NCBI RefSeq assembly: GCF_051201565.1
Contig: NZ_CP179200.1
Coordinates: 840,001 to 872,000 of the forward strand
Source: Pseudothioglobus sp. nBUS_23
Lineage (GTDB): Bacteria > Pseudomonadota > Gammaproteobacteria > PS1 > Pseudothioglobaceae
Direction of reading: 5' to 3'
DNA length: 32,000 nt
In this document: piece by piece, positions 2,096 through 25,121 of the stretch
Position numbering within the stretch: position 1 is the stretch's first letter
How the letters are laid out: the number at the start of each line of letters is the position of its first letter
Notes under the pieces: generated by a model
What the model was told of the DNA's origin: nothing
The model's input: only the letters and a program-made list of their open reading frames with translations
Database searches by the model: none
Position numbers and translations under genes: made by a program

Positions 2096-3370
2096 ATGAT
2101 TAAAAATCTCAACAAGAAGCTTACTTTTATTGATTTATTTGCTGGATGTGGTGGACTTTCTTTGGGATTAGAGCAAGCGGGATTTTATCCTCTTTATGTG
2201 AATGAGCTAAACTCTGATGCTTTAGAAACTTACCTAATTAATAGAGATCAAGAATATCCTCATTTGCGTGAGAAATATCACTCAAAAGATATAAAAGAAG
2301 TTATTCTGAAAAAGGATTATTTTGATTCGCTTTTAAATGATCTGCAAGTCGATTTTAAACGTGACTTTAGAGAAAACTCAGTTGATTTGATAACTGGAGG
2401 TCCTCCTTGCCAAGGCTACTCTGCTTTAGGCATCAGAAGGTCTTATTCTGTAGACAAAAAACAGTTGCCATCTAATCATCTATATCAGGATATGGCCTAT
2501 TTTATTAGTCAGATTCAGCCTAAGATTTTTCTATTCGAAAACGTTCGGGGATTGTTAAATGCAAAATGGACTAAAGATGGAATGAAAGGTGAAATCTTCA
2601 AGGATGTATTTAAAACGTTTGATAGTTTATCTAATTACACAGTCAAGTTTAAATTAGTAAAAGCTAATGATTATGGCGTTCCGCAAAATAGACCCAGAGT
2701 TCTAATAATCGGGATTAGAAATGACTTTAATTTCAATTCAATGTCTGCTCTAGACGCATTAGAAGGAGGTTTACTTCCTGAGCCAACAAATGACTATCCT
2801 GACATAGAGGATCTATTATCTGATTTAGTTGATGACAATTTTGAATATGGCGGTGAGTCACTGTCATACAGAAAAGATCCATTAAATAGACTTCAGGAAA
2901 GTTACCGTACAAATATCCATTCAGGTGTCTTAATGAAAAAAGGGGATGAACTGACAGAAATGAAATACAGCAGACACTCGGATAAGGTAGTTGAAAAATT
3001 TAGTCATATGATCAAAAACCAGGGAAAGATACCAGAGCACCTTAAAACTAAAAAGTTTGCGCAGCGCGTACTTCCAAAAAAATGGGGAGATAATGGCCCT
3101 AAAATAACTGTGACCTCATTGCCTGATGATTTTGTTCATTATTCTCAAGCTAGAAGTCTGACTGTTCGTGAATGGGCAAGATTGCAAACTTTCCCTGATT
3201 GGTATAAGTTTGCTGGAAAAAGAACAACTGGTGGAATTAGAAGGGCGGGTAACCCCCGTGAATCTAACTTTGAAAGAGAGGTTCCAAGATATACCCAAAT
3301 AGGAAATGCAGTTCCTGTTAAGCTCGCTAGTGAGATTGGAAAACACTTTAGAAAGTTACTTCAAAATTAA
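2096..3370 (+). CDS. DNA (cytosine-5)-methyltransferase
   Basis: C5-MTase motifs I, IV, VI, VIII and X plus a motif IX-like block are present in order: I FIDLFAGCGGLSLG, IV GGPPCQGYS, VI ENVRGL, VIII QNRPRVLIIG, IX-like TVREWARLQTFPDWYKF, X TQIGNAVPVKLA. Confidence 0.92.
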   Translation: MIKNLNKKLTFIDLFAGCGGLSLGLEQAGFYPLYVNELNSDALETYLINRDQEYPHLREKYHSKDIKEVILKKDYFDSLLNDLQVDFKRDFRENSVDLITGGPPCQGYSALGIRRSYSVDKKQLPSNHLYQDMAYFISQIQPKIFLFENVRGLLNAKWTKDGMKGEIFKDVFKTFDSLSNYTVKFKLVKANDYGVPQNRPRVLIIGIRNDFNFNSMSALDALEGGLLPEPTNDYPDIEDLLSDLVDDNFEYGGESLSYRKDPLNRLQESYRTNIHSGVLMKKGDELTEMKYSRHSDKVVEKFSHMIKNQGKIPEHLKTKKFAQRVLPKKWGDNGPKITVTSLPDDFVHYSQARSLTVREWARLQTFPDWYKFAGKRTTGGIRRAGNPRESNFEREVPRYTQIGNAVPVKLASEIGKHFRKLLQN

Positions 3371-6208: not shown

Positions 6209-6760
6209 ATGCAGGCATATCTAACGGATGGAACACTACCCACCTATTTTGACAATGGCAAGAAATCAGGAGAAGTTACTTATAAAAATAGTAAACCTCA
6301 TGGATTATGGACGGAATGGTATGAGAGTGGACAATTAAAGTCAGAAAAAAGATATAAAGATGGAAAGCGTCATGGCAAATGGATTGGCTGGCATGAAAAT
6401 GGTTTGATGTTCAAAAAATCCTTTTATAAAGACGGTAAGGCTGAAGGCACTCACATGACTTGGAATAAGGATGGCACCCTAATAAGAAAATATATTTGGA
6501 AAGATAATAAGCTTGATGGGGAGCAAATACAATGGTATGACAATGGTCAAATGAGTCAAAAATCATTCTATCAATATAACAGGATAGAGGGAAAGAGAAT
6601 AGGTTGGTATGAAAACGGTCAAAAGCATTACGAGGACAATTATGAGGATGGTCTTCTAGATGGGTACAGCGTTACTTATCGCGAGAATGGAAGCAAGAGA
6701 AAAGAAGAGAACTACAAGCATGGCTTTTGCTTGGGTCGAACAAACCACGTGGAGGGTTAA
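6209..6760 (+). CDS. MORN-variant repeat protein (YwqK-family antitoxin/immunity-like)
   Basis: About 7 tandem ~23-aa repeats of the form Y-(K/E)-(D/N)-G-K-x-x-G-x-W-x-x-W-(Y/H)-E-N-G-Q, for example GLWTEWYESGQLKSEKRYKDGKRHGKWIGWHENG. Strong SD GGAGG upstream. Confidence 0.8.
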   Translation: MQAYLTDGTLPTYFDNGKKSGEVTYKNSKPHGLWTEWYESGQLKSEKRYKDGKRHGKWIGWHENGLMFKKSFYKDGKAEGTHMTWNKDGTLIRKYIWKDNKLDGEQIQWYDNGQMSQKSFYQYNRIEGKRIGWYENGQKHYEDNYEDGLLDGYSVTYRENGSKRKEENYKHGFCLGRTNHVEG

Positions 6761-6761
6761 T

Positions 6762-7376
6762 ATGACTACATTTAATTTAAATAAAATAGCCAATCTAAAA
6801 GAAGCAGATTATTCAAAAATCAGCTCAAGAGTCAAAGCATTTTGTTCAACTTTTGAGACCGCTCAAATACTCACAGAGATTGTTAAGGACGAGTTAGGTC
6901 ATGTAATTTTTAAAGCGCATGCTGTGGTCGATGGCACAATCAAAGGAACGGGCCATGCTCACGAAGTTGAAGGCTCAACTAATACAAACAACACATCTCA
7001 TTATGAGGTCTGTGAGACCATCGCTGTGGGTCGCGCATTGGCCTTTATAGGCTACTCAGAAACTGATACCTTGGCTTCTTATGAGGAGATTGAAAACTCT
7101 AAATTACAGGAGACTCAAGTCGCATTGCATAAGGAGACTTTAGGAGTTGCAGCGAATTACCTCTCAGTAATATTTAAAAAGGCTATTGAGGAGAGAAATG
7201 AAGAGAAAATAGCAGAGTGTCAAAGAGATATGCGTTTCAATGACGCTTTAAGACAGGCGGTGAACGTAACGTTGAATGATGGGCATAAAGATATTCTGAT
7301 TGAGCGCGGCAGACGCATACAGGAAGAGCGTAAATATGAAGCTAAAAAGCGTGTAACTAAAAAATTAAATGGTTGA
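6762..7376 (+). CDS. hypothetical protein (204 aa)
   Basis: ATG at 6762 lies 1 nt after the upstream stop, with GAGGG 6 nt upstream. The longer 6660 start would overlap the MORN gene by 100 nt. The segment CETIAVGRALAFIGY weakly recalls the conserved helix of Rad52/Sak-type annealing proteins, but this is unverified. Confidence 0.6.
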   Translation: MTTFNLNKIANLKEADYSKISSRVKAFCSTFETAQILTEIVKDELGHVIFKAHAVVDGTIKGTGHAHEVEGSTNTNNTSHYEVCETIAVGRALAFIGYSETDTLASYEEIENSKLQETQVALHKETLGVAANYLSVIFKKAIEERNEEKIAECQRDMRFNDALRQAVNVTLNDGHKDILIERGRRIQEERKYEAKKRVTKKLNG

Positions 7377-7451: not shown

Positions 7452-7964
7452 GTGTCAAAGCAGTCTAAAAAAGAAGAAAATTCAGAGATATTTAAAAATA
7501 TCATGAAGAATCTAAAACCTTCTGGTGTATTGAATATAAAGGACGGCTCTGACACAACCTGGCTTAATGGGCCTGATTCCAAGAGGATGAAGGCTCTTCT
7601 TAATGATGGCATTACTTGGAAAGGTGCTGCGCCTGTTCCGGGGCCTAGTCCCTATAATTACAAAACTTCTCTTAATGGCTGCATTTTTAAGAATGAGTTA
7701 GATAATAAGGTTGATGGTATGGATTATGTTTTTGTTTCTAATCAGGGCTTTGTCTTACAAGGTCCTGAGTTAACTTTTAGTCATAAGCCAGAGGAGGTGG
7801 AAGATTTTAATCCAAATCTTTCAGTCAATGAGTTTGAGCCTAAATATGGTTATTATGAGGTAATTAAATTAAAGGCATACGTATTTCCTAGTGAAGATAA
7901 CCCTTACTATGGTTTCTATAAGAATGCTGATGTTGCTACTCTCTCTCGTTTTATAGTGTATTAA
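7452..7964 (+). CDS. hypothetical protein (170 aa)
   Basis: GTG start preceded by AAGGA at the right spacing. No recognisable motifs. Confidence 0.55.
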   Translation: MSKQSKKEENSEIFKNIMKNLKPSGVLNIKDGSDTTWLNGPDSKRMKALLNDGITWKGAAPVPGPSPYNYKTSLNGCIFKNELDNKVDGMDYVFVSNQGFVLQGPELTFSHKPEEVEDFNPNLSVNEFEPKYGYYEVIKLKAYVFPSEDNPYYGFYKNADVATLSRFIVY

Positions 7965-9025: not shown

Positions 9026-9304
9026 TCATTCATTTTTGACTAGTTGATCGATATATGCATCTAATCTTTCAATTTTTTCTTCGATTACAGAGGAATATGA
9101 AGGGGTTACAGAGGATATTTCTATTAATTGAGGCCCTTGCCTTGATAAGCTTTCTTTGAGCTTCAATTCCCCTATAAACCTTGATAGTTGCTTTTGATTT
9201 GAAAAATAGTGATGTCTGTCTCTTTTTCCCGAGGATTTTTCAATAAGAATCCAGTTGTATTTGTCAGTTTTGATAAACAATCGATTATCACCTAATGAGA
9301 TCAT
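9026..9304 (-). CDS. hypothetical protein (92 aa), translationally coupled to the AlpA-like gene
   Basis: Its ATG overlaps the upstream stop (ATGA). No recognisable motifs. Confidence 0.55.
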   Translation of the reverse strand: MISLGDNRLFIKTDKYNWILIEKSSGKRDRHHYFSNQKQLSRFIGELKLKESLSRQGPQLIEISSVTPSYSSVIEEKIERLDAYIDQLVKNE

Positions 9305-9534
9305 TTTGATTCTCCATCCCTCTCAACGCGCTTATCTTCGAGCCATTGTATGATTTCTTCGTAAAACCAGGCAGAACTTCTCTCACCAAGCTTTATTTGT
9401 CTAGGAAAAGAGTTGTCTTTAATCTGCCTGTAAATACTGGCAGTGCTTAATGTAGTAAGATGTTTAACTTCATTAAGCTTAATCACTTTATTAAATGATT
9501 TTCCTAAACTGCTTGAGTCACTATTTTTGGTCAT
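9301..9534 (-). CDS. alpA: AlpA-family (MerR-type HTH) transcriptional regulator / excisionase-like
   Basis: LTTLSTASIYRQIKDNSFPRQIKLGERSSAWFYEEIIQWLE matches the AlpA/Vis pattern. It is 77 aa, a typical size and island context for this family. Confidence 0.8.
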   Translation of the reverse strand: MTKNSDSSSLGKSFNKVIKLNEVKHLTTLSTASIYRQIKDNSFPRQIKLGERSSAWFYEEIIQWLEDKRVERDGESK

Positions 9535-9588: not shown

Positions 9589-9864
9589 AATATATTTTAA
9601 TTTTTTTGGATTTTTAATTTGATTAAAACCCTTTCATAATAGGGGATACAGCCTTAATTAATTGATATTTGTCTGGTTTTCGATTAGTATTAATAGTCAT
9701 AAAAGTTTGCCTGAGACTAGTTAAATTGCGGGATTGTGAATTACCCTTGGTAATGATGCTGGAAGAACCTATAGTTTTTAATAAGATTTTCCCTTTAATT
9801 TTTTTTTATTTTTTTCCTTATATATAAATCTTTATTATTAAAAGCTTTGTTATTATTAATACGT

Positions 9865-10040
9865 TCCGATTTTCGGAGAATGCGATAATCGGACATCCGA
9901 TAATCGGACTTTGGCTTTTATCTTTTGTCTGATTTTCGGACTTTTATTTCGACCCATAGTCTGATTTTCGGACTTTTATTTCGACCCATAGTCTGATTTT
10001 CGGACTTTTATTTCGACCCATAGTCTGATTTTCGGACTTT
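9865..10040. repeat. array of 7 inverted-repeat boxes, including 3.5 tandem copies of a 32-bp unit (operator or iteron array)
   Basis: Boxes of the form TCCGA-N3-TCGGA start at 9865, 9881, 9896, 9928, 9960, 9992 and 10024. The boxes at 9865 and 9896 have perfect arms. Those at 9928, 9960, 9992 and 10024 read TCTGA-TTT-TCGGA (one mismatch), and the box at 9881 reads TGCGA-TAA-TCGGA (one mismatch). The 32-bp unit GTCTGATTTTCGGACTTTTATTTCGACCCATA is repeated exactly at 9927, 9959 and 9991, with a partial copy at 10023-10040. Confidence 0.9.
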
Positions 10041-10091
10041 GCTTTAGCAGCGCATTTTTATGTGTTTTCAATGAAGATTATTTATTTACTA

Positions 10092-10120
10092 TTGAATACT
10101 TAAATGAGAAGGTGTATATT
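10092..10120 (+). promoter_or_regulatory. candidate sigma70 promoter for the three leader-bearing ORFs
   Basis: TTGAAT (10092-10097), 17 bp, TATATT (10115-10120). The predicted transcription start falls just upstream of leader copy 1. Confidence 0.5.
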
Positions 10121-10138
10121 TGAGATTGATTTAAGAAA

Positions 10139-10212
10139 TGGTTCACTTTACGAACTGGGCATTTGTTCCTATTGTCGCCCTAGGATTTCCCTTAAAGTAC
10201 TAAAACGGAGGT
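10139..10212 (+). promoter_or_regulatory. conserved leader element, copy 1 (variable hairpin plus invariant 58 nt ending in the SD)
   Basis: Hairpin GTTC-ACTTTAC-GAAC (10141-10155), then the invariant CTGGGCATTTGTTCCTATTGTCGCCCTAGGATTTCCCTTAAAGTACTAAAACGGAGGT (10155-10212). The ATG follows at 10217. Confidence 0.8.
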
Positions 10213-10216
10213 TTAT

Positions 10217-10642
10217 ATGTCACAACAAAATCACTCTGACTCTGGTCAGTTTTCGAAGATATTAAGTCTTAAATTTATACTCGGAAGTTGGCCATTAGGC
10301 TACAAACTTATCCTTGAGGGTAATGCAGTTAATGTTACTCCAGACCCATGCTCATTCAATAATGAACCAATGACTTGTATCCCATCTATTGAAGAGTGGA
10401 ATAAATTCTTGGAAAGTATTGAACGACTTGATGTTTTAAATTGGAAAGAAAGTTATATTGATCCATCAATTTTGGATGGAACTCAGTGGCTTTTTCAAAT
10501 TAGAACTGAATCATTTGAAATAGATACTGGAGGCTCAAACGCATACCCTGAAAATTTCAATGGATTGATTACGTCAATTAATAAGCTGATTCCTCTTCCT
10601 TGCTTCACTTTAGGTAGTCCGATATGCGTCGATATTATTTAA
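10217..10642 (+). CDS. hypothetical protein (141 aa)
   Basis: GGAGG SD 5 nt upstream. No recognisable motifs. Confidence 0.65.
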   Translation: MSQQNHSDSGQFSKILSLKFILGSWPLGYKLILEGNAVNVTPDPCSFNNEPMTCIPSIEEWNKFLESIERLDVLNWKESYIDPSILDGTQWLFQIRTESFEIDTGGSNAYPENFNGLITSINKLIPLPCFTLGSPICVDII

Positions 10643-10677
10643 AGTCAGGCACTATTTATATATAGAACATAAAGGGC

Positions 10678-10751
10678 TGGTTTACCTTACAAACTGGGCA
10701 TTTGTTCCTATTGTCGCCCTAGGATTTCCCTTAAAGTACTAAAACGGAGGT
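10678..10751 (+). promoter_or_regulatory. conserved leader element, copy 2
   Basis: Hairpin GTTT-ACCTTAC-AAAC (10680-10694), then the same 58 nt (10694-10751). The ATG follows at 10756. Confidence 0.8.
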
Positions 10752-10755
10752 TATT

Positions 10756-11190
10756 ATGTCACACCCTTACCAAAACCATATAACGGTTGTTATAGGCAAT
10801 CCTGATGAAAAATTCAAAACTAAGGTTTCAGAAACTGCATTTGATGAATGCAGGACTGAAGAAGAAGTTTGGGTTGAGTATGTATTAAGAACTTTTGATA
10901 TTGGCACAATGCAGTTTGAGCCTGACTACAAAAGTCCTATTGATAAAGCTCTTACAAATCTTCTTGGAGAAGAAGTGCGTCTTGCTAAGCCTTTTCATGG
11001 TTTTACAAACAATGATGGAAGAACTTTTCCAGTCGTTATGTTTTTTGAAGAGTTCATACAAGATCTGTCAGGCAATCCAATATCCATTCTAAAGTTTAAT
11101 GATCAAATGCTTAGGCAGCTTGGTGAATACTTTAAAAGAACGATTAAGTCAGATTGGATTCATATCTCATCAACATTTACATATAGCTGA
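10756..11190 (+). CDS. hypothetical protein (144 aa)
   Basis: GGAGG SD upstream. No recognisable motifs and no similarity to the preceding ORF. Confidence 0.65.
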   Translation: MSHPYQNHITVVIGNPDEKFKTKVSETAFDECRTEEEVWVEYVLRTFDIGTMQFEPDYKSPIDKALTNLLGEEVRLAKPFHGFTNNDGRTFPVVMFFEEFIQDLSGNPISILKFNDQMLRQLGEYFKRTIKSDWIHISSTFTYS

Positions 11191-11204
11191 AATTAAGTCT
11201 AGAT

Positions 11205-11278
11205 TGGCTCACTTAATGAGCTGGGCATTTGTTCCTATTGTCGCCCTAGGATTTCCCTTAAAGTACTAAAACGGAGGT
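11205..11278 (+). promoter_or_regulatory. conserved leader element, copy 3
   Basis: Hairpin GCTC-ACTTAAT-GAGC (11207-11221), then the same 58 nt (11221-11278). The ATG follows at 11284. Confidence 0.8.
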
Positions 11279-11283
11279 ATAAG

Positions 11284-11430
11284 ATGGGTAAAGTTACCAT
11301 TAAAAAGCTACCAAAAGATCATCCTATTTTTAAAGCTGGATGGGTTATTTCATCACATAAGAATCAATCTGAAAAGATAAAAATTTATGAGAAGAAAAAA
11401 CTAGCCAAAAAAGACCAAAACAAAAAGTGA
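11284..11430 (+). CDS. small lysine-rich protein (48 aa), below the ORF-track length cutoff
   Basis: I translated it by hand: MGKVTIKKLPKDHPIFKAGWVISSHKNQSEKIKIYEKKKLAKKDQNKK, stop TGA at 11428-11430. It has the same leader and SD as the two upstream ORFs, which is the main argument that it is real. Confidence 0.45.
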   Translation: MGKVTIKKLPKDHPIFKAGWVISSHKNQSEKIKIYEKKKLAKKDQNKK

Positions 11431-11437
11431 TCTCATT

Positions 11438-11472
11438 AAGCCAGAGTTAATAAGAATGATCGACTCTGGCTT
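11438..11472. terminator. hairpin between convergent genes (candidate bidirectional terminator)
   Basis: Perfect 10-bp stem AAGCCAGAGT / ACTCTGGCTT with a 15-nt loop. There is no clean T-run directly after it on either strand. Confidence 0.4.
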
Positions 11473-11502
11473 ATAATAAGACTGATAGTTAAAGCTTTGA
11501 AG

Positions 11503-13098
11503 TTAGCTAAGGCTGAATTTATTTAATATCTCAGTATATGCAGCAGCAATGAGCTCAATATGATGTTGAAGCTCGTCACGATCCAAAGTATCTGCTAGTT
11601 GTGATCTAGAAATCTCTAGATTATTTCCAATAATTCCAATTGAAACCATATGGCTATGAATTATTTCTAATAATTGAGCTCTCGATGATTTTTTGTCAAA
11701 TAAATTCGCACTGTTTGGAATTAATGCATTGATGATTAAGTTGCGCTTTTCTTTTGTAACCGAGCAGGGCATCATAGAGAGAGTAATTGGAACCTTAAGG
11801 CCATTATTTTGAACATTAATTTGAATTGAATCATTAGGCCCTGGTTTTGGGTTGAATTTAAATGACTTAAGTCTTTCAACTACAATCATCAATTCAGGGT
11901 CAGGTTTGATTTCTTTTGAAGCTATTTCAATGCCATTAATTAATAGCTTTGATTGTGAGCCAAAGCCATTTAAATTTTGTTCTAGAGATGAAATTACAGA
12001 GTAGTTTGAAGAATTAGCAATATTCTCTGAAAGCATTAAATATTTATCAAGCTCATCTCTATTATTTCTCCATAAACTACCTGCAAGATAGTTAGTTTTG
12101 TCTCTAAATAAAGTTAAAAATTCAGCTATTGCTGCAACAGTTTTTCCTGCGTTAAGTGAATTTATATGATGGTCAAGTGACTCTTGATTATCAGATATGC
12201 ATGCAAGAAAAATTGATCGTTGTAAAACGCGATCCTTATCACCCAATTCAGATGGTGATTCAATACCAATTAAAATATTTTGAGTTTTATCTAATATCCT
12301 CGGAATAACTGGATTAATAGTTTCTTCATGAGTTACAAATCTAATAGGCTTTTGACTTGATGCATGAAGCGTCATTTCTTTGATAATCTCTTGTGATGAA
12401 AATTTGATATTGATTAACTCGCCATTATCAGAAATGCCCAATTTTTTTAAGCTAAAAATATAGAGTCTTAGTAACTGAAATTCATATTCCTGAATCTTTT
12501 TTGAGAGCTGAACTTCATCCAGAACTTTTTCTGTTAGCTCATAACAAATTTCAAAGGGGGTGCTGCCTGTAATTTTTGAAGAATAGTTGAAATCAATATT
12601 TAGTTTTTTGTATAGACCAACCACAGCTATATTTAAACTAGTTAGATGATTTACATGAAGCGCTCTTTGTGTAATTTTTGAAGCAGGCGGTAATACCCTG
12701 CTGCGCTTTAATTTACTTGTTTTTTCACGAACTTCAAATTCAAATAATTCAATGGGTAAATCAGGAAGCATTGAAAATGAAGCAATAAAGTTATCTTTCG
12801 TTTTTTGATCGAAGAATATAATTTTTTTTATATTTGAAATTGCTATAGGCCCATCTAGCATGAGATATTTAAATGTTTTCTTTTTTGCCGGTATAGCTGA
12901 CTTAACTGAAGTTATTTCTAAGCATAAATCATGCGTAATTTCATCAATAGAGCCTACAACAGAAACTTTTGGAAAGCTTAAAGACTGTATGTCACTATCA
13001 GGCTCAATGCTTGATGTCAGCCCAATAAAACCAGAGCTTAAATATTCCGGAAGTAGTGTTTTTTCCAAGGGTACAAAATATGTGTTTAGTTTATCCAT
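11503..13098 (-). CDS. hypothetical protein, last gene of the helicase operon (531 aa from ATG 13098; TTG alternative at 13104)
   Basis: Its start lies 2 nt after the upstream stop (or overlaps it by 4 nt if TTG is used). I found no Walker, nuclease, zinc-finger or TM motif. Confidence 0.8.
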   Translation of the reverse strand: MDKLNTYFVPLEKTLLPEYLSSGFIGLTSSIEPDSDIQSLSFPKVSVVGSIDEITHDLCLEITSVKSAIPAKKKTFKYLMLDGPIAISNIKKIIFFDQKTKDNFIASFSMLPDLPIELFEFEVREKTSKLKRSRVLPPASKITQRALHVNHLTSLNIAVVGLYKKLNIDFNYSSKITGSTPFEICYELTEKVLDEVQLSKKIQEYEFQLLRLYIFSLKKLGISDNGELINIKFSSQEIIKEMTLHASSQKPIRFVTHEETINPVIPRILDKTQNILIGIESPSELGDKDRVLQRSIFLACISDNQESLDHHINSLNAGKTVAAIAEFLTLFRDKTNYLAGSLWRNNRDELDKYLMLSENIANSSNYSVISSLEQNLNGFGSQSKLLINGIEIASKEIKPDPELMIVVERLKSFKFNPKPGPNDSIQINVQNNGLKVPITLSMMPCSVTKEKRNLIINALIPNSANLFDKKSSRAQLLEIIHSHMVSIGIIGNNLEISRSQLADTLDRDELQHHIELIAAAYTEILNKFSLS

Positions 13099-13100
13099 TA

Positions 13101-14609
13101 TCAAAGCTCGATTTTATCTTTAATTTCCTTTATAGAAAAATTGTTCAATTCTACTAGTGTATCAAGAATTGACTCCTCTAGATTATTTGTTGCACTCAAT
13201 CTATCGTTAATTAATTGAGGAATATGGCCATATTCAAATTGACCAGAAACAGCCTCAATAATGACTTGTTTGGTAGTTTCAAGATCCATTTTAGATAGCT
13301 TTTTTGCTAAATCCCCATATAAATCCCTAGCTACTGTTGAAGCTGATGCAAGCCAGTCAACATCATTTAACATATCTTCTAATACTGGATTTTGTAAATC
13401 CTTTTCAAGGGTGGTATAGGTGCATAAAGGCTCACTATCACTATGTGAAGGAAATAATCTTAAAACATCTTTAAAGCCTCCATTATCAGGAGATCCTTCA
13501 ACCATAAAAAATAAGTGTTCTCTTGGTCTAGATGAAACTACATAAAGTTTCTTAAAACCATCAATTTCATTACCTGCGCTGAGATATAAGCCTGCAAGAT
13601 TAATAACAAATACAACATCAAACTCTAAACCCTTAGAATTGGCTTGATGAATAATAGTTATAGAGGGAGGTTTATCAAACTGTAAGCTTTCCCAGTCATT
13701 GAGTTTGAAAGTATCTTTACCAATATAAGTTTGCACATGATATTTTGATTGATTTGATTCAAGAATTTTTTTAATTGAGGAATAAACAAACTTAACATCC
13801 TTATTTTTGCCTAAAACCACCACACCAACCTCCTTATTTGTCTGGACGTTGCAGTAGTTAGCGATATGCTCTATTTGACTATTAAGATCTTTATTTACAA
13901 ATATAACTGGTTTAATTCCTTCATGATCAGGCAAACTAACTGTTCCAGCTCCTAAAACTTGAAAATGCCTAGCGAATTTTGCAACTTCTTTAGTGTTCCG
14001 ATAATTTTTATCTACTCTCCAGTATCTTCTGTTTCTTGCAGTTGCATTTATTTCAGATCTAATTTCTGAGATAGTCGAATTAACATCAGTAATTGTTTGA
14101 TTTTCATCTGCAAAAACACTTAAAGTAAGCGTTGGATCTTTTTGGTTATTTACATAGTTCATTAAGGTGGAGTACATTTTTTTTGGAAAATCTTGCCCTT
14201 CATCAATAATTAGATGCCCCCAATGAAGTTTCTTTTTTTGACTATCTGTTGCGTTAGCTATATTTTGATCAATTTTCGACCAATTAATCTCCCATGGTTT
14301 ACGATAAGTTGTTGGAAAGCTTCTCTCTCCAAATGCAGATTCATACCATTCCTTTGCCCATTCATTAATATGAACTACCTTAACATTTTTTGGCAAACCT
14401 TCAAAATTAGAAGTGTATTGCCTTAAGGTTTTATTAAACATTCCAACAATTACATTTCCTGATTTTGCCAGTCTTGTAGCCCGATGCATTGCGAGAACAG
14501 TTTTTCCTGACCCTGGAGGACCAACTATTAAGACACCCTTATCTTGGGGAGATTCTGAGTAGACGTTCCTTTGGTCTTGGTCTAAATCTGCAAATGCGGG
14601 AAATTTCAT
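13101..14609 (-). CDS. UvrD/Rep-like SF1 helicase-family ATPase
   Basis: Walker A VGPPGSGKT, Walker B LIIDEGQDF, NYRNT, KGLEFDVVFV and LYVVSSRPREHLFF are present in SF1 order. 502 aa. Confidence 0.85.
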   Translation of the reverse strand: MKFPAFADLDQDQRNVYSESPQDKGVLIVGPPGSGKTVLAMHRATRLAKSGNVIVGMFNKTLRQYTSNFEGLPKNVKVVHINEWAKEWYESAFGERSFPTTYRKPWEINWSKIDQNIANATDSQKKKLHWGHLIIDEGQDFPKKMYSTLMNYVNNQKDPTLTLSVFADENQTITDVNSTISEIRSEINATARNRRYWRVDKNYRNTKEVAKFARHFQVLGAGTVSLPDHEGIKPVIFVNKDLNSQIEHIANYCNVQTNKEVGVVVLGKNKDVKFVYSSIKKILESNQSKYHVQTYIGKDTFKLNDWESLQFDKPPSITIIHQANSKGLEFDVVFVINLAGLYLSAGNEIDGFKKLYVVSSRPREHLFFMVEGSPDNGGFKDVLRLFPSHSDSEPLCTYTTLEKDLQNPVLEDMLNDVDWLASASTVARDLYGDLAKKLSKMDLETTKQVIIEAVSGQFEYGHIPQLINDRLSATNNLEESILDTLVELNNFSIKEIKDKIEL

Positions 14610-16489
14610 TAGATAAGCTCTTGAATAAAGTTAAAAAGACCAGAAACCTCGTCCCTTTCTTTTCCAAGGCCGCCCAAAGTGAGACGGTTCAACATTGCAT
14701 TTTGAAAGGTGCAGCTGGTTTCAGCAATTAGTGAACAGCAATGACATGCTGATCTATTTAAACCAGAAAACCCCTGTGAATCTGTCTCTCTGCAAACCGG
14801 ATCTGCTGAGCACCAGATAGCAGATTCATTAAGTTTATCTAAAACCAGATTTATTGCCTCTATTCGAGCTTGATCAACAAGCCCTCCCATTGTGCCTTCA
14901 GCATCTAATTCTGAGGTATAAATCATTATTCCTGCATAGTTTGAATCTGGATCAACAAAGACCCTCTCTCTAAGAGCTGATGAAGAATAACCACTGTTAA
15001 AGGTGAGTTGCCTTATCAATAGATGCGAAAGGGTGTGAGTGAGAATAAATAAGTCAGAGTCAGGAATGTCCAAAAGATAGTTATCATTAAGCTTTTCTAA
15101 TACCTGTTGCTGACCTCTAACTAGCTTAGAAAACTCATCACCATGCTCTTTAAAATATTTTGTAATTGTTGATTTATTCAACTCAAAATAAATACCTTCT
15201 CCAAAAGCCTCTATTGTTGGAAGCCAGTTTCGTTCTTCACTTATGTCGACAGATACGTCAACTAAACCTTGCCCTCTTGTAAATCCAGTTAAAACTCTAA
15301 TTTCTCTTAATCTTCTTATTTTGGCAATATGAGAAAACAGTAGACTAGTAAATTTACTTCCAGTTGCTGTAGATTCAAAAGTAATATCGAAGTTATCTTG
15401 ATGGACATCAATTCGTTTTTTAAAAAAATCTAATTCATCTTTAAGAAGGTTCTCTTGTTTTTTATCAACTTCTTCCTCTGTATCATTAGAATCACCAAAA
15501 TCATTCTCTAATTTTTTCTTTGCTGAATTAATTAAAAATTCAAGTGCTTTTTCATAGCTAATATTGGCCTGACTTGCATACCTCTCTATCTTGGTTTCGT
15601 ATTTATTGTCATCTGACTCAAGGCTCAAAATACATAGATCTAGTCCTATCTCTTCAATAATATCTTCAAGAAGTAAATTGAGCGCCGAAGAGTCAAAATC
15701 ATTACTTTCCTTGGCCTTTAGACTAATATCTATCGCGCTAAGTATCTTAGGCCTATGAATTGATGAACTTCCTCTTGGTTCAAATTTCATGGTTACTTCT
15801 TTGCAAGTTGTGGCAACTTCCATTCTTTTATCCCTAGACATTTTTGGGTGAACCATCCAAGGTTGTGTTCCACAGCATGCTTGATTATTTGCATACACTA
15901 AGTGACCCGGAATAGCCCTATCTTGCAATCGTTTTAAGGAAACACCTGGAGAATCACACGCTCTACATTTGACAATCATCTGATCAAAATCACCACCATG
16001 CTTTCCTGTTGTAGTAAAGAATATTTGGTCGTAGACAGTACAATTTCCAGTATTTGCTTGCTGTTGATTTGAGTGAGCAAATAACCACCAATTAAATTCA
16101 GTTAAATGACCATTATTGCAATAGGCTATGAATCGCATTGGAGAAAGCTTGGATTTACTTTTACAATTTCCGCACCTTGGCTCACCATGCTTTTCAAGAA
16201 GAGCTTTATCTAAAAGCTGAAGACTGCTACATTTTGAGCAATGATGCCATTGAGGAAAGCGACTAACCGTTAAAGATTCCTCTGGATTTTCAAAACTAGA
16301 GAAACTTCTAAGTTCTTTTTTGAACCCCAAGAGTTTATTTAGTCTTTCTAGCTCGACTATTTGAGATGGTCTCCTCCATTTTGAAATATCATTAACAACA
16401 AATGACTCTCCATCAATATCAATAATTGCACCAACACCAAAGGGTTGAATAGTTTGAGCCCTTCGCATTTTTTTTAGATTGTCAATCAT
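14609..16489 (-). CDS. DrmB-like DUF1998 (MrfA-type zinc-binding) protein
   Basis: The C-terminus WCSADPVCRE...ACHCCSLIAETSCTFQNAMLNR fits the DUF1998 four-Cys plus N..L.R signature. The N-terminus RRAQTIQPFGVGAIIDIDGESFVV is DrmB-like. Additional CxxC pairs are present (CSKCSS...CGNCKS). Confidence 0.8.
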   Translation of the reverse strand: MIDNLKKMRRAQTIQPFGVGAIIDIDGESFVVNDISKWRRPSQIVELERLNKLLGFKKELRSFSSFENPEESLTVSRFPQWHHCSKCSSLQLLDKALLEKHGEPRCGNCKSKSKLSPMRFIAYCNNGHLTEFNWWLFAHSNQQQANTGNCTVYDQIFFTTTGKHGGDFDQMIVKCRACDSPGVSLKRLQDRAIPGHLVYANNQACCGTQPWMVHPKMSRDKRMEVATTCKEVTMKFEPRGSSSIHRPKILSAIDISLKAKESNDFDSSALNLLLEDIIEEIGLDLCILSLESDDNKYETKIERYASQANISYEKALEFLINSAKKKLENDFGDSNDTEEEVDKKQENLLKDELDFFKKRIDVHQDNFDITFESTATGSKFTSLLFSHIAKIRRLREIRVLTGFTRGQGLVDVSVDISEERNWLPTIEAFGEGIYFELNKSTITKYFKEHGDEFSKLVRGQQQVLEKLNDNYLLDIPDSDLFILTHTLSHLLIRQLTFNSGYSSSALRERVFVDPDSNYAGIMIYTSELDAEGTMGGLVDQARIEAINLVLDKLNESAIWCSADPVCRETDSQGFSGLNRSACHCCSLIAETSCTFQNAMLNRLTLGGLGKERDEVSGLFNFIQELI

Positions 16490-19400
16490 TCGACCCTCAC
16501 TTGAACTTCAGAGTCAACATTCCTCATAGAATGCATTGTTCTAAATCCTGAACTATTGTCATTTTTTTGATTAAAGTTTATTAACAGTGAATGCATAGAT
16601 TTGTCTTTGCCAGCATTATAATAAAGTCTCTGTTTGGTCCAATCTGTCCAATTATTCAGGACTTTCTTTATATGCTTTTCAATTATTGATCTTTCATAAT
16701 TGTATTTATTTTCATCATATATGTTTACTAGACGTTTTTTAAAGTCTGATAATAAAGGTTCAATTTCTTCATGACCTTTGCTAAATAATCCAGCAGAATT
16801 GTTATCTTTCATATGACTAACACCATGCCTAATGAGGATTACTAAGCTAGCATGTAGAGCTCTTTCAAGTGCTGGGGCACTGCCAGGGGTGACACTAGTT
16901 GGCTCAACAAGTTGATAGAGTTTTTGATGGTAGGCTTTAAATTGTTCATAATGGCTTCGATCTCTTGGCTTCGCAGGAGAATATAAAGCAATTATCAGTC
17001 CTGGGCCAATATTATCAGGGCTTCTTCCAACTCGACTGCTTGCTTGAATATATTCAGAAGTTGTTTTGGGCTGACCATTAATAATCATAGAGCCTAGTCT
17101 GTCTATATCAATACCAACTGAAATCATATTTGTAGCAGGAACAAAGTCAATGACTGATGAGTCATTATTTGTAGTTCTCAAAGCATCACTTGTTTCTGAA
17201 ATTGATTTTGTTATGTTGGCACTTATTTCCTCTTTATTTAGAGGTTGAATTTCATCACGATCCTGATTTTGAGCATCACAGCAAACTTTCATTCTATCTA
17301 AGATTTCTTGATTTACTGAGCTATTAATTAAACCTAACTCTCTTAAACTATTGCAATAGCAAAGTGTAGTCCATAAAAAATCTAATGCCTCTTTTGAATC
17401 ATCTTTTTCTGCGATATATCTGACTGATTGAAGAAAAGCTCCACTCACTGCGTGCGCAGCACTTGTTGATCTAAAGGCTTGGGGCATAATTCCAAGATAG
17501 AGTCTTCCATTACTTGGATTGGCATCAGTATTAGCAAAGAAAGAATTTTTAATTCTAAGACCCCTTGGTGGAAATATTTTGGACTCCCTTCCAAGGAGCC
17601 TCTGAAGCTGTGTTTTGGAGTCTCTAACGGTAGCACTTGAGGCAATATATTTTGGACCAGTGTCAGCAAGATTGTGATCTCTCTGAGCTTTTCTTATTAA
17701 GGAATCAAAACCTGCCTCATAGATAGCACTTATTGTGCCCAATGGTCCTGAAATTAAATGTATTTCATCTTGGATTATTAGCGTAGGTGGAATAGTATTT
17801 TGCTTAGATTTTGGTCTAATGCCAAAAATACCACCCGGCTCAGGTTTCCATGCAACCTCAGCAAATTTATCAATAGTTCCTAAAAGGAAGGAGGGTGGCG
17901 CTTTATATATTTCTTCATCAACAGTTTTAACAGGGATATTAATTTTGTTAAAGGTACATTTCAAATTTTGACATCGATAAATGACAGCATTATTTGTAAC
18001 TCTAATACCAAGACCAGGGTAAAAACCATCTACATCTTTTTCGATATTGCTGGGTATTATGCTCGTTCCACAGCATGGACATTCTGTTACATGAAACAAA
18101 TGAGTTGTTACATTGTCAACCAGTTGATTAAAGCCTTCTCTAGCATCCTCAATTCGATTATAAGAAACTTTGCTTCCAACAAATAGACCAATACTAAATT
18201 GTTCATCACCTAATAAATCTTCGTTCTCTAGTCGGACTTTTTCTAATGCGCATCCAAGCGAAGTTGTTCGTGAAAATTGATCTGAGGTTAAAAAACGGAG
18301 TGTATATCGTGTCAACACTCCAGTGCCATATCCTATTTCAGGAGTGCCATATCTTGTCCTTCTTCTAATCAGCTCATAGCAAGCTAGAAAAAGATATGCT
18401 TCTGTCTTACCTCCACCGGTACTAAACCAAATTAAATCTGCAATTTCTCTATTTTCTTTACCTTCTTCTTCAAAGTCTAAAAAGCACATTAAAAAGAAGG
18501 CTAACTGAAATGGCCTCCATCTTGGGCTATCTTCTGAGTTTATTTGGTCAAGATCAAGAGAGTTATCAATATTTTCATTCCAATCAATTGGCCATGGCTT
18601 ATTTTCTTTTTCTCTTACTGATCGTAAATCTCTATTTTTTTTGGTTTGGAGCATTTGAATAAGCATTGCTCTATTAGACAATCTAAAAGCTTCCCAAAAG
18701 TTATCATTATTCTCAAGAGCCTTTATGCCCTTACGCATTCTCTGAGAACACTCTTTCATTTCATTAACAAGGTGTTTTTGAGCATTTTTAAAACTTTTTT
18801 GTGGTAAGTTTGATTCACTATCAATCCATTGCTCATAAAATTGACATAGCTCATAAAACCCTGAGATTAATTTATCTTTATCAAATTTATTGTCAGCTAG
18901 ATTTGCAATATTGAATATATATGAGTTTTCAAAAGTTGAGCCATCAGACCCCTTTAAGGTGTCAAATATTGGTCTATAAACTGTTTCAAAAGGTATATAC
19001 GAGATTTCTACTTGATTAATTAATCCATTATCCTCATGCCAATCAACAGAGGCACCATGCCCAATGGCATAAATAGGATTGTCACTATATTGTAGAGACA
19101 GGATATTCTCTTCCATATCATTTAGCTCAACTTTGTTAAAGTCGTAGGGTTTGATATGATTTTCAGAACTAGTGCATTTTAGATTTACTTGATACAAGCG
19201 TTTTTCAACATTTTTAATACTTCTTTGACTCTTGTCATTTTTATTTAACTCATTCACAAGAGTTACCGTAACAATTTCACAATCCTTACGATCTTTTGAG
19301 TTTCTTCTGAAAATATGTACTTTGGCTTTATATTCTTCACCATCATGAAAAATATCCTGATTTTTCTTAATTGAATTAGCTTTAATGACTGAATCTTCTA

Positions 19401-19800
19401 GGGGAATTCTTCTATAGCCAACTGGCGAATCTTCACTTTTAGCTTGATATTTATATCTTGCAGCAGAACAATGAATGGTGAAATCGGCTCCTTTTTTTAT
19501 TACAAAGGTAATACCAACTGAAGAAGGGAGCTCTTCATTAGCCATGGACAAGGGATTATCGGAATCTCCACTAAAATCCTCTCTTGTTTTGCCTTCAATT
19601 GATCCATCCTCTTCACTAAATGATTCATCATCTGAAGAAAGATCAGCTCTTTTTTCACCCTGCGGAAATAAGATGCCAGTAAGGTATCTTAAAGTTAAGC
19701 CTCTATTGCCCTCTATAAACTCATCATTTCCACCTCGAGGGCCAAAAACTAGTGATTTAAACTCATCTGCTACTTGTTGTCTAAGTTCAGATTTATGCAT
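16486..19800 (-). CDS. DrmA-like SF2 (DExH) helicase, 1104 aa
   Basis: Motif I WFSTGGGKTEAYLF (about nt 18423), motif II IIQDEIHLISGPLGT (about nt 17772), motif III SSAT, and motifs V/VI MISVGIDIDRL...YIQASSRVGR. A Cys4 insertion (CPCCGTS...YRCQNLKC) lies between motifs I and II. The N-terminal region of about 450 aa has no assignment. Confidence 0.85.
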   Translation of the reverse strand: MHKSELRQQVADEFKSLVFGPRGGNDEFIEGNRGLTLRYLTGILFPQGEKRADLSSDDESFSEEDGSIEGKTREDFSGDSDNPLSMANEELPSSVGITFVIKKGADFTIHCSAARYKYQAKSEDSPVGYRRIPLEDSVIKANSIKKNQDIFHDGEEYKAKVHIFRRNSKDRKDCEIVTVTLVNELNKNDKSQRSIKNVEKRLYQVNLKCTSSENHIKPYDFNKVELNDMEENILSLQYSDNPIYAIGHGASVDWHEDNGLINQVEISYIPFETVYRPIFDTLKGSDGSTFENSYIFNIANLADNKFDKDKLISGFYELCQFYEQWIDSESNLPQKSFKNAQKHLVNEMKECSQRMRKGIKALENNDNFWEAFRLSNRAMLIQMLQTKKNRDLRSVREKENKPWPIDWNENIDNSLDLDQINSEDSPRWRPFQLAFFLMCFLDFEEEGKENREIADLIWFSTGGGKTEAYLFLACYELIRRRTRYGTPEIGYGTGVLTRYTLRFLTSDQFSRTTSLGCALEKVRLENEDLLGDEQFSIGLFVGSKVSYNRIEDAREGFNQLVDNVTTHLFHVTECPCCGTSIIPSNIEKDVDGFYPGLGIRVTNNAVIYRCQNLKCTFNKINIPVKTVDEEIYKAPPSFLLGTIDKFAEVAWKPEPGGIFGIRPKSKQNTIPPTLIIQDEIHLISGPLGTISAIYEAGFDSLIRKAQRDHNLADTGPKYIASSATVRDSKTQLQRLLGRESKIFPPRGLRIKNSFFANTDANPSNGRLYLGIMPQAFRSTSAAHAVSGAFLQSVRYIAEKDDSKEALDFLWTTLCYCNSLRELGLINSSVNQEILDRMKVCCDAQNQDRDEIQPLNKEEISANITKSISETSDALRTTNNDSSVIDFVPATNMISVGIDIDRLGSMIINGQPKTTSEYIQASSRVGRSPDNIGPGLIIALYSPAKPRDRSHYEQFKAYHQKLYQLVEPTSVTPGSAPALERALHASLVILIRHGVSHMKDNNSAGLFSKGHEEIEPLLSDFKKRLVNIYDENKYNYERSIIEKHIKKVLNNWTDWTKQRLYYNAGKDKSMHSLLINFNQKNDNSSGFRTMHSMRNVDSEVQVRVE

Positions 19801-21352
19801 TCAATAGCTCCAATAAATATTTTTTAACTTGATCATTCTCAACAATATAACAAATACCTGTTGATCGTGAAACTGATTTGTAATATTGATCACGAAAAAC
19901 CTCAACATTAGAAACCTCACCCAGCCCAATAATAAAGACATAGTTTGATTCCATTCCTTTAAATTCATCAATTTGAGCAATCGTACAGCCTTCTTTTTGA
20001 AGCCTTGAAATATAATTAATTTTGTCTAGATTCTCTTTTTTTGAATAAAGAATTGTTGATTGACTAATATCAATAATGTCACCATTGGTAATGATATTCT
20101 CCAAAGCATCATTGTCAATTCGTCTCACTTCAGGTCCAGCTCCCTTAGCAGTTGTTCTGCCAACTCTTGCTTTAGAAATAGTTTCTAAGGCTTTAACAAT
20201 ATTAGGAGTATTTCTAACGTTAATATCAAGAGGAATCAGTGAATTATTTCCTGTACATGTTTTGATATAATCAAGATGGGAACTATCAAAGGAAGAGTTG
20301 TTGTCAAACTGGTTTTCAAAATCTCCAAACCACCTCCAACGACCATTTTCAAGTCCATCTTTTAAGACTTTATCTATGAGATCAATGCCATCATTATTGC
20401 ACCAGTCCTGACCTTCATCTATTAAGACAACATCAAATGAATCATCTTTAATAGCTGATAAGCTTTCTAAATTGTGACACTCAATAGATGAATCAAAAGA
20501 AACCTCTTGCTTTAAAAAATTGATTAATCTATTGGGCTTTGTAATGATTGCAATCTTTTTATTGTTAGTAGATTCAAATTTAGCACCATAAAGCAATAAA
20601 AATGTTTTACCTGTGCCGGCACCACCATCTATTAAAAGCCTATCAAGACTTGAGAACATATCAATAACTTGGTATTGACCCTCAGTCATTGATTTTTGTT
20701 CTTTATTTAAATTTGAAATAACACTTTGTTGATCAACATATGACTTATCCCAATCTGGTCTTAAAAGAATGGAAGCTTGATTTACTTGCTCATCTGATAA
20801 GGTTGAAGCTGGCTTGTTTGGAAAGTCATTTGCAATAAAGTGATCGATTGCAATATTCAAGTATTCTTTAAATATCACTGGTGTTATAAGGTTTTCCTCA
20901 TAGAGACAGTACTCATCCTGCATCTCAGGCCAATCATTAATTACTCTATTGTTACTGCATAAAATAGCTACTTTAACAAAAGGGATCTTAAAAAAAGATC
21001 GATCGTTAAACCATTTTTTCCTTAGTGTTTCGACTGCATCGCTAGCCTGTACTAAAGGAGATTTTTTCTTTTTATATCTTTCTTTTTTGCAACTTTTATC
21101 AGTATAAATCCTGTAATAACCCTCAATATATCTGACAGGGCCTGCTTTGACTTCAATACCAATAATCCCTCTTTTTGTGATTACAAGAAAATCAATTTCA
21201 GACCACCCTTGTCGTCTCCCTCCTGGGATATTTAATGAATGCATTGCAACATCGCATGAACTTAAATTGATCTCTTCAAGAAGGTCCATTACTCTCTTTT
21301 CACCATTATTCTCTATCTCATGGTTCCAGATTTGAGGGGGAATTGTTCTCAT
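19793..21352 (-). CDS. NERD-domain nuclease fused to an SF1 helicase-like ATPase
   Basis: The N-terminus GEKRVMDLLEE...GWSEIDFLVITKRGIIGIEVKAG fits the NERD (PD-(D/E)xK-type) pattern. It is followed by Walker A DGGAGTGKT, Walker B VVLIDEGQDW, NVRNT and FKGMESNYVFIIGL. Confidence 0.85.
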   Translation of the reverse strand: MRTIPPQIWNHEIENNGEKRVMDLLEEINLSSCDVAMHSLNIPGGRRQGWSEIDFLVITKRGIIGIEVKAGPVRYIEGYYRIYTDKSCKKERYKKKKSPLVQASDAVETLRKKWFNDRSFFKIPFVKVAILCSNNRVINDWPEMQDEYCLYEENLITPVIFKEYLNIAIDHFIANDFPNKPASTLSDEQVNQASILLRPDWDKSYVDQQSVISNLNKEQKSMTEGQYQVIDMFSSLDRLLIDGGAGTGKTFLLLYGAKFESTNNKKIAIITKPNRLINFLKQEVSFDSSIECHNLESLSAIKDDSFDVVLIDEGQDWCNNDGIDLIDKVLKDGLENGRWRWFGDFENQFDNNSSFDSSHLDYIKTCTGNNSLIPLDINVRNTPNIVKALETISKARVGRTTAKGAGPEVRRIDNDALENIITNGDIIDISQSTILYSKKENLDKINYISRLQKEGCTIAQIDEFKGMESNYVFIIGLGEVSNVEVFRDQYYKSVSRSTGICYIVENDQVKKYLLELLNA

Positions 21353-24602: not shown

Positions 24603-25121
24603 TTACATGATTACTGGACAAGAATTATCTAGTGTTAAATATGATTTGTCTAAGCCCTTTGTTTTAAATGAGTCAGTCGTAATATCTAAAATATCAATTA
24701 GTTTTTTCGGCCCAGTAACTGTTAATTCAACTCTGGATGATTCCTTTAGTTTTTCAACAAAGGCTTCAGATTTAATGATTGCACCAAAGTAGCCAACTTC
24801 TAGAAGAAACATTTCACCAGCAAACATTAAAGTGAACTGAAGCTCTTCATCCAGCTCCTCGCTATCAATTTTTATCTTGAAATAGACGTCCTCACCCTCA
24901 AACTTCTTCATCTCGCCATCGGAGATTCCAGAGGACCAGCTCACAAGCAAGATGTCAGAGTCACAGAACCTCAAATTTTTCATAAAACCAAACTGATGAC
25001 CCCAAACAATCTCCCCATGAGTAATGAGTCTGGTGTCGTCAATTAGATTCCAATTTTCTTCTGCGATAGAGTTAGAGCTAAGACCAACAAAAAGCAGTAT
25101 AAGAGTGAGTATTTTTTTCAT
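24603..25121 (-). CDS. secreted hypothetical protein (172 aa)
   Basis: Signal peptide MKKILTLILLFVGLSSNSIA. Last gene of a tightly packed minus-strand cluster. Confidence 0.7.
   Translation of the reverse strand: MKKILTLILLFVGLSSNSIAEENWNLIDDTRLITHGEIVWGHQFGFMKNLRFCDSDILLVSWSSGISDGEMKKFEGEDVYFKIKIDSEELDEELQFTLMFAGEMFLLEVGYFGAIIKSEAFVEKLKESSRVELTVTGPKKLIDILDITTDSFKTKGLDKSYLTLDNSCPVIM

Follow-up and report, generated by a model that had tools for sequence, protein, structure and literature searches.

Identical leaders before three unrelated small genes in Pseudothioglobus: a probable SAM-V-class translational riboswitch, one per cistron

Why should three small open reading frames (ORFs) that do not resemble one another be preceded by the same leader? 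The question is raised by a 32,000-nt stretch of the genome of Pseudothioglobus sp. nBUS_23 (assembly GCF_051201565.1, contig NZ_CP179200.1, positions 840,001–872,000 of the forward strand), referred to here as the window, to which all coordinates refer unless another sequence is named. A 58-mer, CTGGGC...GGAGGT, occurs on its + strand without a mismatch at 10155–10212, 10694–10751 and 11221–11278, as an earlier note on this DNA had reported. No further copy was found in the window at up to three mismatches, and shuffled sequences predict 0. Each copy ends in a Shine-Dalgarno (SD) sequence, with 4, 4 and 5 nt between the 58-mer and the ATG in units 1, 2 and 3, and the three encoded proteins (141, 144 and 48 aa) have no similarity to each other by BLASTP. 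The true repeat unit is larger, ca. 86 nt (repeat finder, family D1), and includes the hairpin just upstream of each 58-mer. Leader and hairpin together are most likely a translational riboswitch of the SAM-V class, within the SAM-II/SAM-V family of H-type pseudoknots that respond to S-adenosylmethionine (SAM).

The earlier note did not recognize the element as a known motif, which proved to be wrong. In the Rfam comparison that it had proposed, a tRNA was the sole window match at gathering thresholds, the cut-off for SAM-V (RF01826) being 41 bits. With E-value reporting, all three copies, while below this cut-off, align to the SAM-V model over positions 1–66 of 66, and the blocks GGCAUUUG, UAUUGU, CGCC, UAAAG, ACUAAAA and GGAG are common to copies and model. 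Relatives of the element found elsewhere (described below) exceed the cut-off, with scores of 45.8, 44.7 and 43.4 bits (loci L105 and L004), while others score 29–39 bits. Those above the cut-off carry the same upstream hairpin and precede the same ORF families as the window copies, and one of them shares an array with a unit of the window's own subtype. The family thus forms a continuum up to members above the cut-off, bona fide SAM-V, with the window copies at its divergent end. The Rfam threshold misses most of this subfamily.

The assignment can be followed nucleotide by nucleotide on two references, the crystallized metY sequence and the bhmT sequence validated by isothermal titration calorimetry (Huang and Lilley 2018, PMC6061858), whose numbering is used here. 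Unit 1 lies on the + strand. It begins with a hairpin, P0, at 10140–10156 (core GUUC/GAAC, 10141–10144 with 10152–10155, a 7-nt loop and a G·U closing pair 10140:10156), which abuts the next helix without a gap. The aptamer, 10157–10205, is the full-length Rfam match. Its P1 pairs 10157–10160 with 10177–10180 (GGGC/GCCC), one of the pairings that the earlier note had proposed; the triplex third strand AUUUG follows at 10161–10165, then the linker UUCC (10166–10169) and UA (10170–10171). P2 joins 10172–10176 to 10197–10203, with U10198 unpaired and U10201 as the equivalent of U47. The 4-bp P1 and the P2 strands that cross it form an H-type pseudoknot. The P1 3' strand is followed by a P3 hairpin, AGG/CCU, that pairs 10182–10184 with 10190–10192 around a 5-nt loop, and this by the A-rich junction (10193–10196). 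A50 and A51 are 10204–10205, and the SD, GGAGG (10207–10211), starts 1 nt past A51 and is complementary to the linker, with four pairs (UUCC:GGAG, helix P2a). ORF1 (141 aa) occupies 10217–10642. Unit 2 has its P0 hairpin (GUUU/AAAC) at 10679–10695 and its aptamer and SD at 10696–10750 (102.9 bits with model R1), followed by ORF2 (10756–11190, 144 aa); unit 3 has P0 (GCUC/GAGC) at 11206–11222 and aptamer and SD at 11223–11277, followed by ORF3 (11284–11430, 48 aa). Both aptamers are identical to that of unit 1, and all of these features are on the + strand.

Segment by segment, metY reads AGGC (P1 5' strand), an extra GC, AUUUG (third strand), AAC UG (turn and linker), UAUUGUAC (U17–C24), GCCU (P1 3' strand), AAA (junction), GUACU (P2 3' strand) and the tail AAAAAAGG. 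The bhmT sequence reads GGGC, no extra bases, AGUUG, AAC CA, UAUUGUGC, GCCC, UUAA, GCACU and AAAAAGGA. The window copies read GGGC, no extra bases, AUUUG, UUC C, UAUUGU-C, GCCC, UAAA, GUACU and AAAACGGAGG, with UAGGAUUUCCCU as the P3 segment between the P1 3' strand and the junction. The window P1 is that of bhmT, and G5-C6 are absent, as they are in bhmT. In metY, the adenine of SAM lies at U47; U8, U9 and U20:A48 surround the sulfonium, A18 and A50 together serve the amino-acid end, and U10 the metal (PMC6061858). All of these nucleotides – U8, U9, U10, A18, U20:A48, U47 and A50 – are identical in the three window copies. There are two departures from the canonical SAM-V consensus: the P0 hairpin, and the loss of one P2 nucleotide. 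Canonical P2 has six pairs; in the window nt 23 is deleted and nt 44 unpaired, which leaves five pairs, with the U47 bulge kept.

The earlier note had named a search for further copies as a check, and such copies exist, with the stem kept. With a degenerate pattern, matches came from two genomes, the gammaproteobacterial single-cell genome L001 and a Candidatus Pseudothioglobus sp. chromosome (L002); a pattern anchored in the 5' half found the element on at least 120 marine metagenome contigs. A structural parse gave 166 units in 121 loci. Viral contigs had no match in three scans with exact and degenerate patterns, blastn of 9800–11500 against plasmid and phage collections returned nothing, and there is no evidence of a viral origin of the element.

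Pairing in P0, P1 and P2a was counted in 114 distinct leaders from other sequences. The P0 stem is paired in 98.2% of cells, with double-sided changes in three of its four pairs; U-A to C-G occurs 21 times and C-G to U-A 8 times. The earlier note had described the compensated changes among the three window hairpins (GTTC/GAAC, GTTT/AAAC and GCTC/GAGC) and had attributed them to selection on structure. Its description was accurate, and the larger sample confirms that the hairpin is under selection for structure. P1 is paired in 100% of these leaders, and the P2a pairs are formed in 88.6% of cells. Informative variation within the core came from looser nhmmer and covariance-model matches: pair 24:43 of P2 changes from C:G to U:A, pair 1:28 of P1 from G:C to A:U through G·U intermediates (with compensated AGGC/GCCU variants), and P3 occurs as AGG/CCU, CUGG/CCAG and a compensated AGA/UCU, its inner pairs 100% paired. 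In an alignment of 21 representative variants with metY and bhmT (A4), which was hand-picked and so has limited weight, pairing reaches 98.5% in P1, lower P2 and inner P3, compared to 39–66% with the partners slid, and 4 of 10 pairs show double-sided changes. The G·U pairs of P0 and P1 can form only in + strand RNA. The nucleotides of the SAM-V ligand-binding core are more than 97% conserved (PMC6061858), and the conserved blocks of the leader coincide with that core.

Two subtypes differ at the pocket. Type A, which includes the window copies, has the third strand AUUUG and lacks nt 23 in almost all units. Type D (for example L001 6233–6302, minus strand) has the third strand GGUUG and keeps the 23:44 pair in nearly all units, and in 33 of 33 an extra C follows U47; the extra C accompanies an AUUUG third strand in 0 of 133 units. 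GGUUG and the extra C are a coupled change at the adenine-binding pocket, which could provide one more G:C contact or shift the ligand preference. Overall, nt 23 is deleted in 131 of the 166 units, the window's among them, and the sixth P2 pair is kept as G:C or A:U in 35; the 23:44 pair was scored as G:C in 30 units and A:U in 3. Where nt 23 is gone, nt 44 is C in 75 units, U in 48 and G in 8, a free variation that is expected because the base is now unpaired.

The identity of the three window copies looks less remarkable in this sample, because the aptamer subtype is nearly invariant everywhere. The exact window 58-mer was seen 18 times in 16 of the sequences compared, and type A cores diverge on average by about 2 of 54 nt. 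The L001 homolog of ORF2 has only 51% protein identity, yet its leader is identical at 58 of 58 positions. Leaders are identical in 11.6% of random pairs across contigs and in 25% of pairs inside one contig. These figures suggest that the triple identity reflects mostly a strong constraint on the aptamer, plus some local homogenization.

The layout of the arrays, which consist of two to four leader–ORF units, fits control of translation. A consensus scan placed a sigma-70-type promoter (TTGAAT-17 nt-TATATT) at 10092–10120 on the + strand. The pattern TTGAnT-17-TATAnT also precedes the first array unit in other loci, its -10 hexamer ending 36 nt before P1, and no promoter match was found before internal array units. 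With a promoter at the first unit only, the arrays are operons with one translational riboswitch per cistron, and the leader recurs before each ORF because SAM-V acts on ribosome binding, not on transcription. The shared translational operator that the earlier note had offered among its explanations is thus upheld, in the form of a cis-acting control element that works as RNA of the + strand.

In the published occlusion model, SAM stabilizes the P2 triplex, the linker pairs with the SD (P2a) and initiation is blocked; in bhmT, the 3' nucleotides of the CC:GG P2a pairing are required for SAM binding (PMC6061858). The window linker and SD pair in the same register as the bhmT CC:GG, with four pairs. 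From the homology with the model of Huang and Lilley and the UUCC:GGAG pairing, we infer an OFF switch, in which the ORFs would be translated when SAM is low. The promoter at 10092–10120 would transcribe ORF1, ORF2 and ORF3 as one operon. In each leader GGGC pairs with GCCC (P1), UUGUC with G-ACU-AA (P2) and AGG with CCU (P3), and the AUUUG strand would lie in the P2 major groove as a triplex, forming the SAM pocket. With SAM bound, the triplex would be stabilized, UUCC would pair with the GGAG of the SD, ribosomes would be excluded and the genes would be off; with SAM low, the SD would be free and the three small proteins would be made. The sequences themselves show the SAM-V homology, the covarying helices, the retained ligand contacts and the layout as an operon; SAM as the ligand, its effect on translation and the part played by P0 are inferences.

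P0, an addition confined to this subfamily, probably stacks under the short P1 and shields the folding of the aptamer from upstream coding RNA. It was also considered as a terminator and rejected: it has no U tract, and the internal units need read-through of P0. Upstream of the promoter, between it and the divergent alpA gene, are six tandem 32-bp repeats (9865–10055; repeat families D2 and D3), each with the palindrome TCYGAWWWWCGGA. They resemble an operator or a set of iterons. In L121, L013 and L071, arrays that begin with an ORF1-type gene have a single copy of the palindrome upstream, and the repeats are probably the operator for a DNA-binding regulator of the array.

Several observations weigh against a SAM-V riboswitch. 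The window copies score 21.1 (unit 1), 22.0 (unit 2) and 26.1 bits (unit 3) against the cut-off, with E-values of 0.1–1.4 in a small search. The core is almost invariant and the search pattern fixed its 5' half, so the P1 and P2 covariation comes from few sequences. Judged from the sequence, the deletion of nt 23, which shortens P2 to five pairs plus the bulge, would take the element beyond any SAM-V assayed. No ORF family behind the 166 units has a domain of methionine or SAM metabolism, and gene context, the usual guide to the ligand of a riboswitch, does not point to SAM metabolism. Finally, folding without pseudoknots favors an alternative, with the SD paired to the P3 loop and the P3 3' strand, that would invert the logic of the switch.

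This last point would make the same aptamer an ON switch: without SAM, AUUUCC of the P3 loop and 3' strand pairs with GGAGGU and hides the SD, and SAM releases it. The pairing appears in the minimum-free-energy folds of copies 1 and 2, together with P1 it is worth -10.2 kcal/mol compared to -1.4 for P0, P2 and P3, and such a switch would suit gene products that use or remove SAM. However, the pairing is lost in the P3 variants AUAUGCC, AUUUGCC and AUUUACC, and the single-sequence folds are no more stable than those of shuffled sequence (z about +1), by a method that cannot represent the pseudoknot. Alone, the nested portion is thermodynamically weak, as expected, because folding depends on the ligand and the pseudoknot. 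Validated SAM-V also needs the 3' nucleotides that contain the SD, paired with the linker, for SAM binding (PMC6061858), and the complementarity of linker and SD is stronger here. An ON switch is accordingly unlikely. The unusual gene context, unlike that of every validated SAM-V, raises instead the question of a changed ligand – S-adenosylhomocysteine, methylthioadenosine, a SAM conjugate such as SAM-AMP, or another cation. Spermidine-sensing variants of SAM-I show that close variants of a SAM aptamer can switch (PMC10853860), and both the missing nt 23 of type A and the altered adenine pocket of type D could be read in this way. But every SAM-contacting nucleotide is unchanged in the type A copies of the window, a G at position 8 is also present in bhmT, which binds SAM with a dissociation constant of 0.5 uM (PMC6061858), and units above and below the Rfam cut-off share arrays and ORF families. 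A changed ligand is quite unlikely overall; the possibility would apply above all to type D, whereas the type A pocket appears intact.

The earlier note had pointed to two GGA motifs, one in the SD and one upstream, as in leaders bound by CsrA-type regulators; CsrA, or another protein at these motifs or at another invariant part, would then block the SD. The window leader does have a GGA in the P3 region as well as that in the SD, and the near-invariance of all 58 nt exceeds that of many riboswitches. Yet the upstream GGA is in the P3 stem, not in a conserved loop, and this segment varies (UAGGG, CUGGG, UAGAA), so that the motif is missing in 43 of the 166 units (26%). As the conserved blocks are those of the SAM-V ligand-binding core and covariation backs a pseudoknot, not a single GGA hairpin, protein binding of this kind is extremely improbable. 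Two further suggestions of the earlier note, an RNA-processing signal and a cassette junction, are not needed to explain the element, although the ORF families do occur in shuffled orders behind the leader. As a cassette junction the repeat would be a recombination site at the DNA level, like an integron attC or the cassettes of T4-type phages, that serves mainly to shuffle ORFs, and the greater likeness of leaders inside a contig would agree with it. Nevertheless, there is no integron integrase, and the only recombinase in the window is a P4-type integrase at tRNA-Ser; the repeat is on the 5' side of the ORFs and supplies their SD, and no second-strand palindrome spans the unit. The G·U pairs and compensatory changes indicate selection on + strand RNA, SAM-V homology accounts for the sequence completely, and shuffling can follow from ordinary homologous recombination between repeats. 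A dedicated recombination site is very improbable, and recombination at the repeats may be a side effect.

What, then, are the proteins that such a riboswitch would control? The leader precedes four recurrent, mutually unrelated families and some rarer ones. The commonest partner is the family of ORF2 (F0; 144–197 aa, about 62 units), followed by that of ORF3 (F1; about 47–51 aa, 46 units), a family of Sel1-repeat proteins with no window member (F2; about 174–193 aa, 17 units) and that of ORF1 (F3; 125–149 aa, 9 units). Their order differs between contigs, with F3-F0-F1, F0-F1, F0-F2, F3-F3-F0, F3-F0-F2-F1 and others. A 170-aa ORF at 7452–7964 was considered as a hidden member of F0 and rejected. 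Searches of ORF1–3 in Pfam, NCBIfam, PHROGs and PADLOC gave nothing except one phage family for ORF1, phrog_24571 (function unassigned, E 5.6e-9). The predicted fold of ORF1 resembles the eukaryotic Mago-nashi (pLDDT 80.7, TM 0.56), and its distant homologs in other bacteria have no leader. The ORF3 family is basic, with a median isoelectric point of about 10.

ORF2 has a confidently predicted ferredoxin-like fold (pLDDT 82.5). Its top Foldseek match in the PDB is a SAM-AMP lyase (E 2.8e-3, TM 0.39–0.45), the rest being generic ferredoxin-like folds; in BFVD it matches only uncharacterized phage proteins, and a profile search of PDB sequences found nothing. Assignment as a SAM lyase was not upheld, given the low TM and no backing from the other searches, and it is a weak lead only. 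On the basis of this best structural match to the PII-like fold of SAM-AMP/SAM lyases, weak as it is, ORF2 may itself act on SAM. Its family is tiny, with 35 clusters among 1.8 billion representatives, and a few relatives are fused into proteins of 237–720 aa without Pfam domains.

The window is a variable island region beside metG and tRNA-Ser. From the tRNA-Ser(GGA) gene at 587–674, the order is a P4-type integrase (859–2070), a C5 cytosine DNA methyltransferase (2096–3370), an 846-aa Schlafen/AlbA protein, a MORN-repeat protein, a GIY-YIG protein, AlpA (9301–9534, minus strand), the six 32-bp repeats, the riboswitch array and a convergent DISARM-type defense operon (11503–21352, minus strand; DrmA 4e-185, DrmB 1e-72). 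The last encodes a 2CompART protein (533 aa), a UvrD-like helicase (502 aa), DrmB (626 aa), DrmA (1104 aa) and a NERD-helicase (519 aa); L121 again has a 2CompART and helicase pair, beside an MvaI/BcnI endonuclease and a C5 methyltransferase. The syntenic L002 lacks about 9.4 kb that the window carries between the tRNA and the array. No attachment (att) repeat of the tRNA-Ser 3' end was found at up to three mismatches.

C5 methyltransferases are present in 22 of the 121 loci; among the 30 loci of at least 4 kb, 15 have one. They are 24% to 100% identical to each other and so do not represent one island sampled repeatedly. Several are paired with endonucleases of the MvaI/BcnI, MutH or HinfI type. 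Other neighbors of the arrays include helix-turn-helix (HTH) and ImmA genes, NOV_C, DUF3427 and radical SAM genes. Downstream of the array in L001 (639–3734) are an HTH_3 regulator, an ImmA/IrrE-type peptidase and a DUF763 and radical SAM pair; the radical SAM gene adds a further SAM-using enzyme next to an array. A conserved neighbor just upstream of arrays in many loci is a pair made up of a MORN_2-repeat gene and, after it, a 217–238 aa protein without Pfam domains (window 6209–7376), which is also found in L001, L026, L032, L037, L090, L098 and L116 (43–86% identity).

Between the array and the convergent DISARM operon, at 11440–11470, an 8-bp G+C-rich inverted repeat (GCCAGAGT / ACTCTGGC) with a 15-nt loop, which the scan missed owing to the long loop, is followed by TTATAAT and probably serves as a terminator in both directions. 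The stretch from the start of alpA to the end of ORF3 lies between the arms of a 15-nt inverted repeat (93% complementary; 9293–9307 and 11424–11438), which may be due to chance. Beyond the DISARM operon, a 1036-aa ORF (21433–24543) has no Pfam or PADLOC match, and 24603–32000 is a run of small ORFs on both strands.

Riboswitches are almost always viewed as feedback devices of metabolism, with the controlled genes as the basis for guessing the ligand. Here the case is reversed – the aptamer is recognizable as SAM-V, and its targets are four or more families of uncharacterized small proteins. The arrays are modular and lie in variable islands of abundant marine gammaproteobacteria that repeatedly hold C5 methyltransferases with endonucleases, or DISARM. 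If SAM is the ligand, these proteins would be made specifically when the methyl donor runs out, which is when restriction systems endanger their host, and some phages cause such a shortage on purpose. The arrays might be a SAM-depletion alarm wired into defense islands, a proposal that we regard as doubtful and put forward tentatively. A collapse of the SAM pool, through starvation or through a phage SAM lyase or MetK inhibitor that serves to disarm SAM-dependent restriction-modification (R-M), BREX or DISARM, would free translation of the small proteins. The released proteins would either restrain neighboring nucleases of restriction systems or DISARM that, if left free, would cut the unmethylated DNA of the host, or start a back-up defense. 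If true, this would be the first riboswitch known to couple the level of a cofactor to immunity rather than to metabolism; in the collection of papers searched, none joins SAM riboswitches to R-M or defense islands. Production of the proteins at low SAM, if SAM is the ligand, would open a direct way to find out by experiment what they do. For an operon, one translational riboswitch at each cistron is an unusual design, and the tolerance of the SAM-II/V fold is put to a natural test by the addition of P0 and the loss of one nucleotide from P2.

Among known systems, the closest is SAM-V itself (RF01826; the metY, bhmT and mmuM leaders of 'Candidatus Pelagibacter ubique', structure 6FZ0). The two share a marine habitat, the H-type pseudoknot with a 4-bp P1, P2 with a major-groove triplex, the P3 hairpin, an SD adjoining the aptamer, and P2a. 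The window element differs in the nt 23 deletion, the covarying P0 and a stronger P2a, and its host is a gammaproteobacterium of the Pseudothioglobus group instead of SAR11. Published SAM-V riboswitches precede metY, bhmt, mmuM and metH (PMC2704228), while here small uncharacterized proteins beside R-M and defense genes take the place of methionine biosynthesis genes, and there are two to four copies per operon, one for each cistron. SAM-II (RF00521) has the same ligand-binding core and the same pseudoknot-triplex principle, its core differing from that of SAM-V by a root-mean-square deviation of 0.37 A (PMC6061858). In SAM-II, P1 spans at least 6 bp and P2 4 bp, P3 is usually absent and control is mostly transcriptional (PMC6061858 supplement); the element described here differs in its 4-bp P1 and in the presence of P3 and an SD, and Rfam assigns it to SAM-V. 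Tandem riboswitches, such as SAM-II/SAM-V before bhmT in SAR11, also place more than one SAM aptamer on a transcript, but known tandems are stacked in one 5' untranslated region for one gene, whereas here identical aptamers lie between cistrons and each has its own ORF. In the mobile cassettes of T4-type phages, promoter-early stem-loops flank small variable ORFs whose order differs between genomes. The likeness is a repeated stem-loop with an expression signal before unrelated small ORFs; the stem-loops of the cassettes are promoter- or terminator-like and have no ligand-binding fold, unlike the aptamers here, where a promoter is found at the first unit only. The RNA class is thus already known. 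What is new is the subfamily (with P0 and the nt 23 deletion, and mostly below the Rfam threshold), the host group, the per-cistron arrays, and the link to uncharacterized proteins beside SAM-dependent R-M and DISARM genes.

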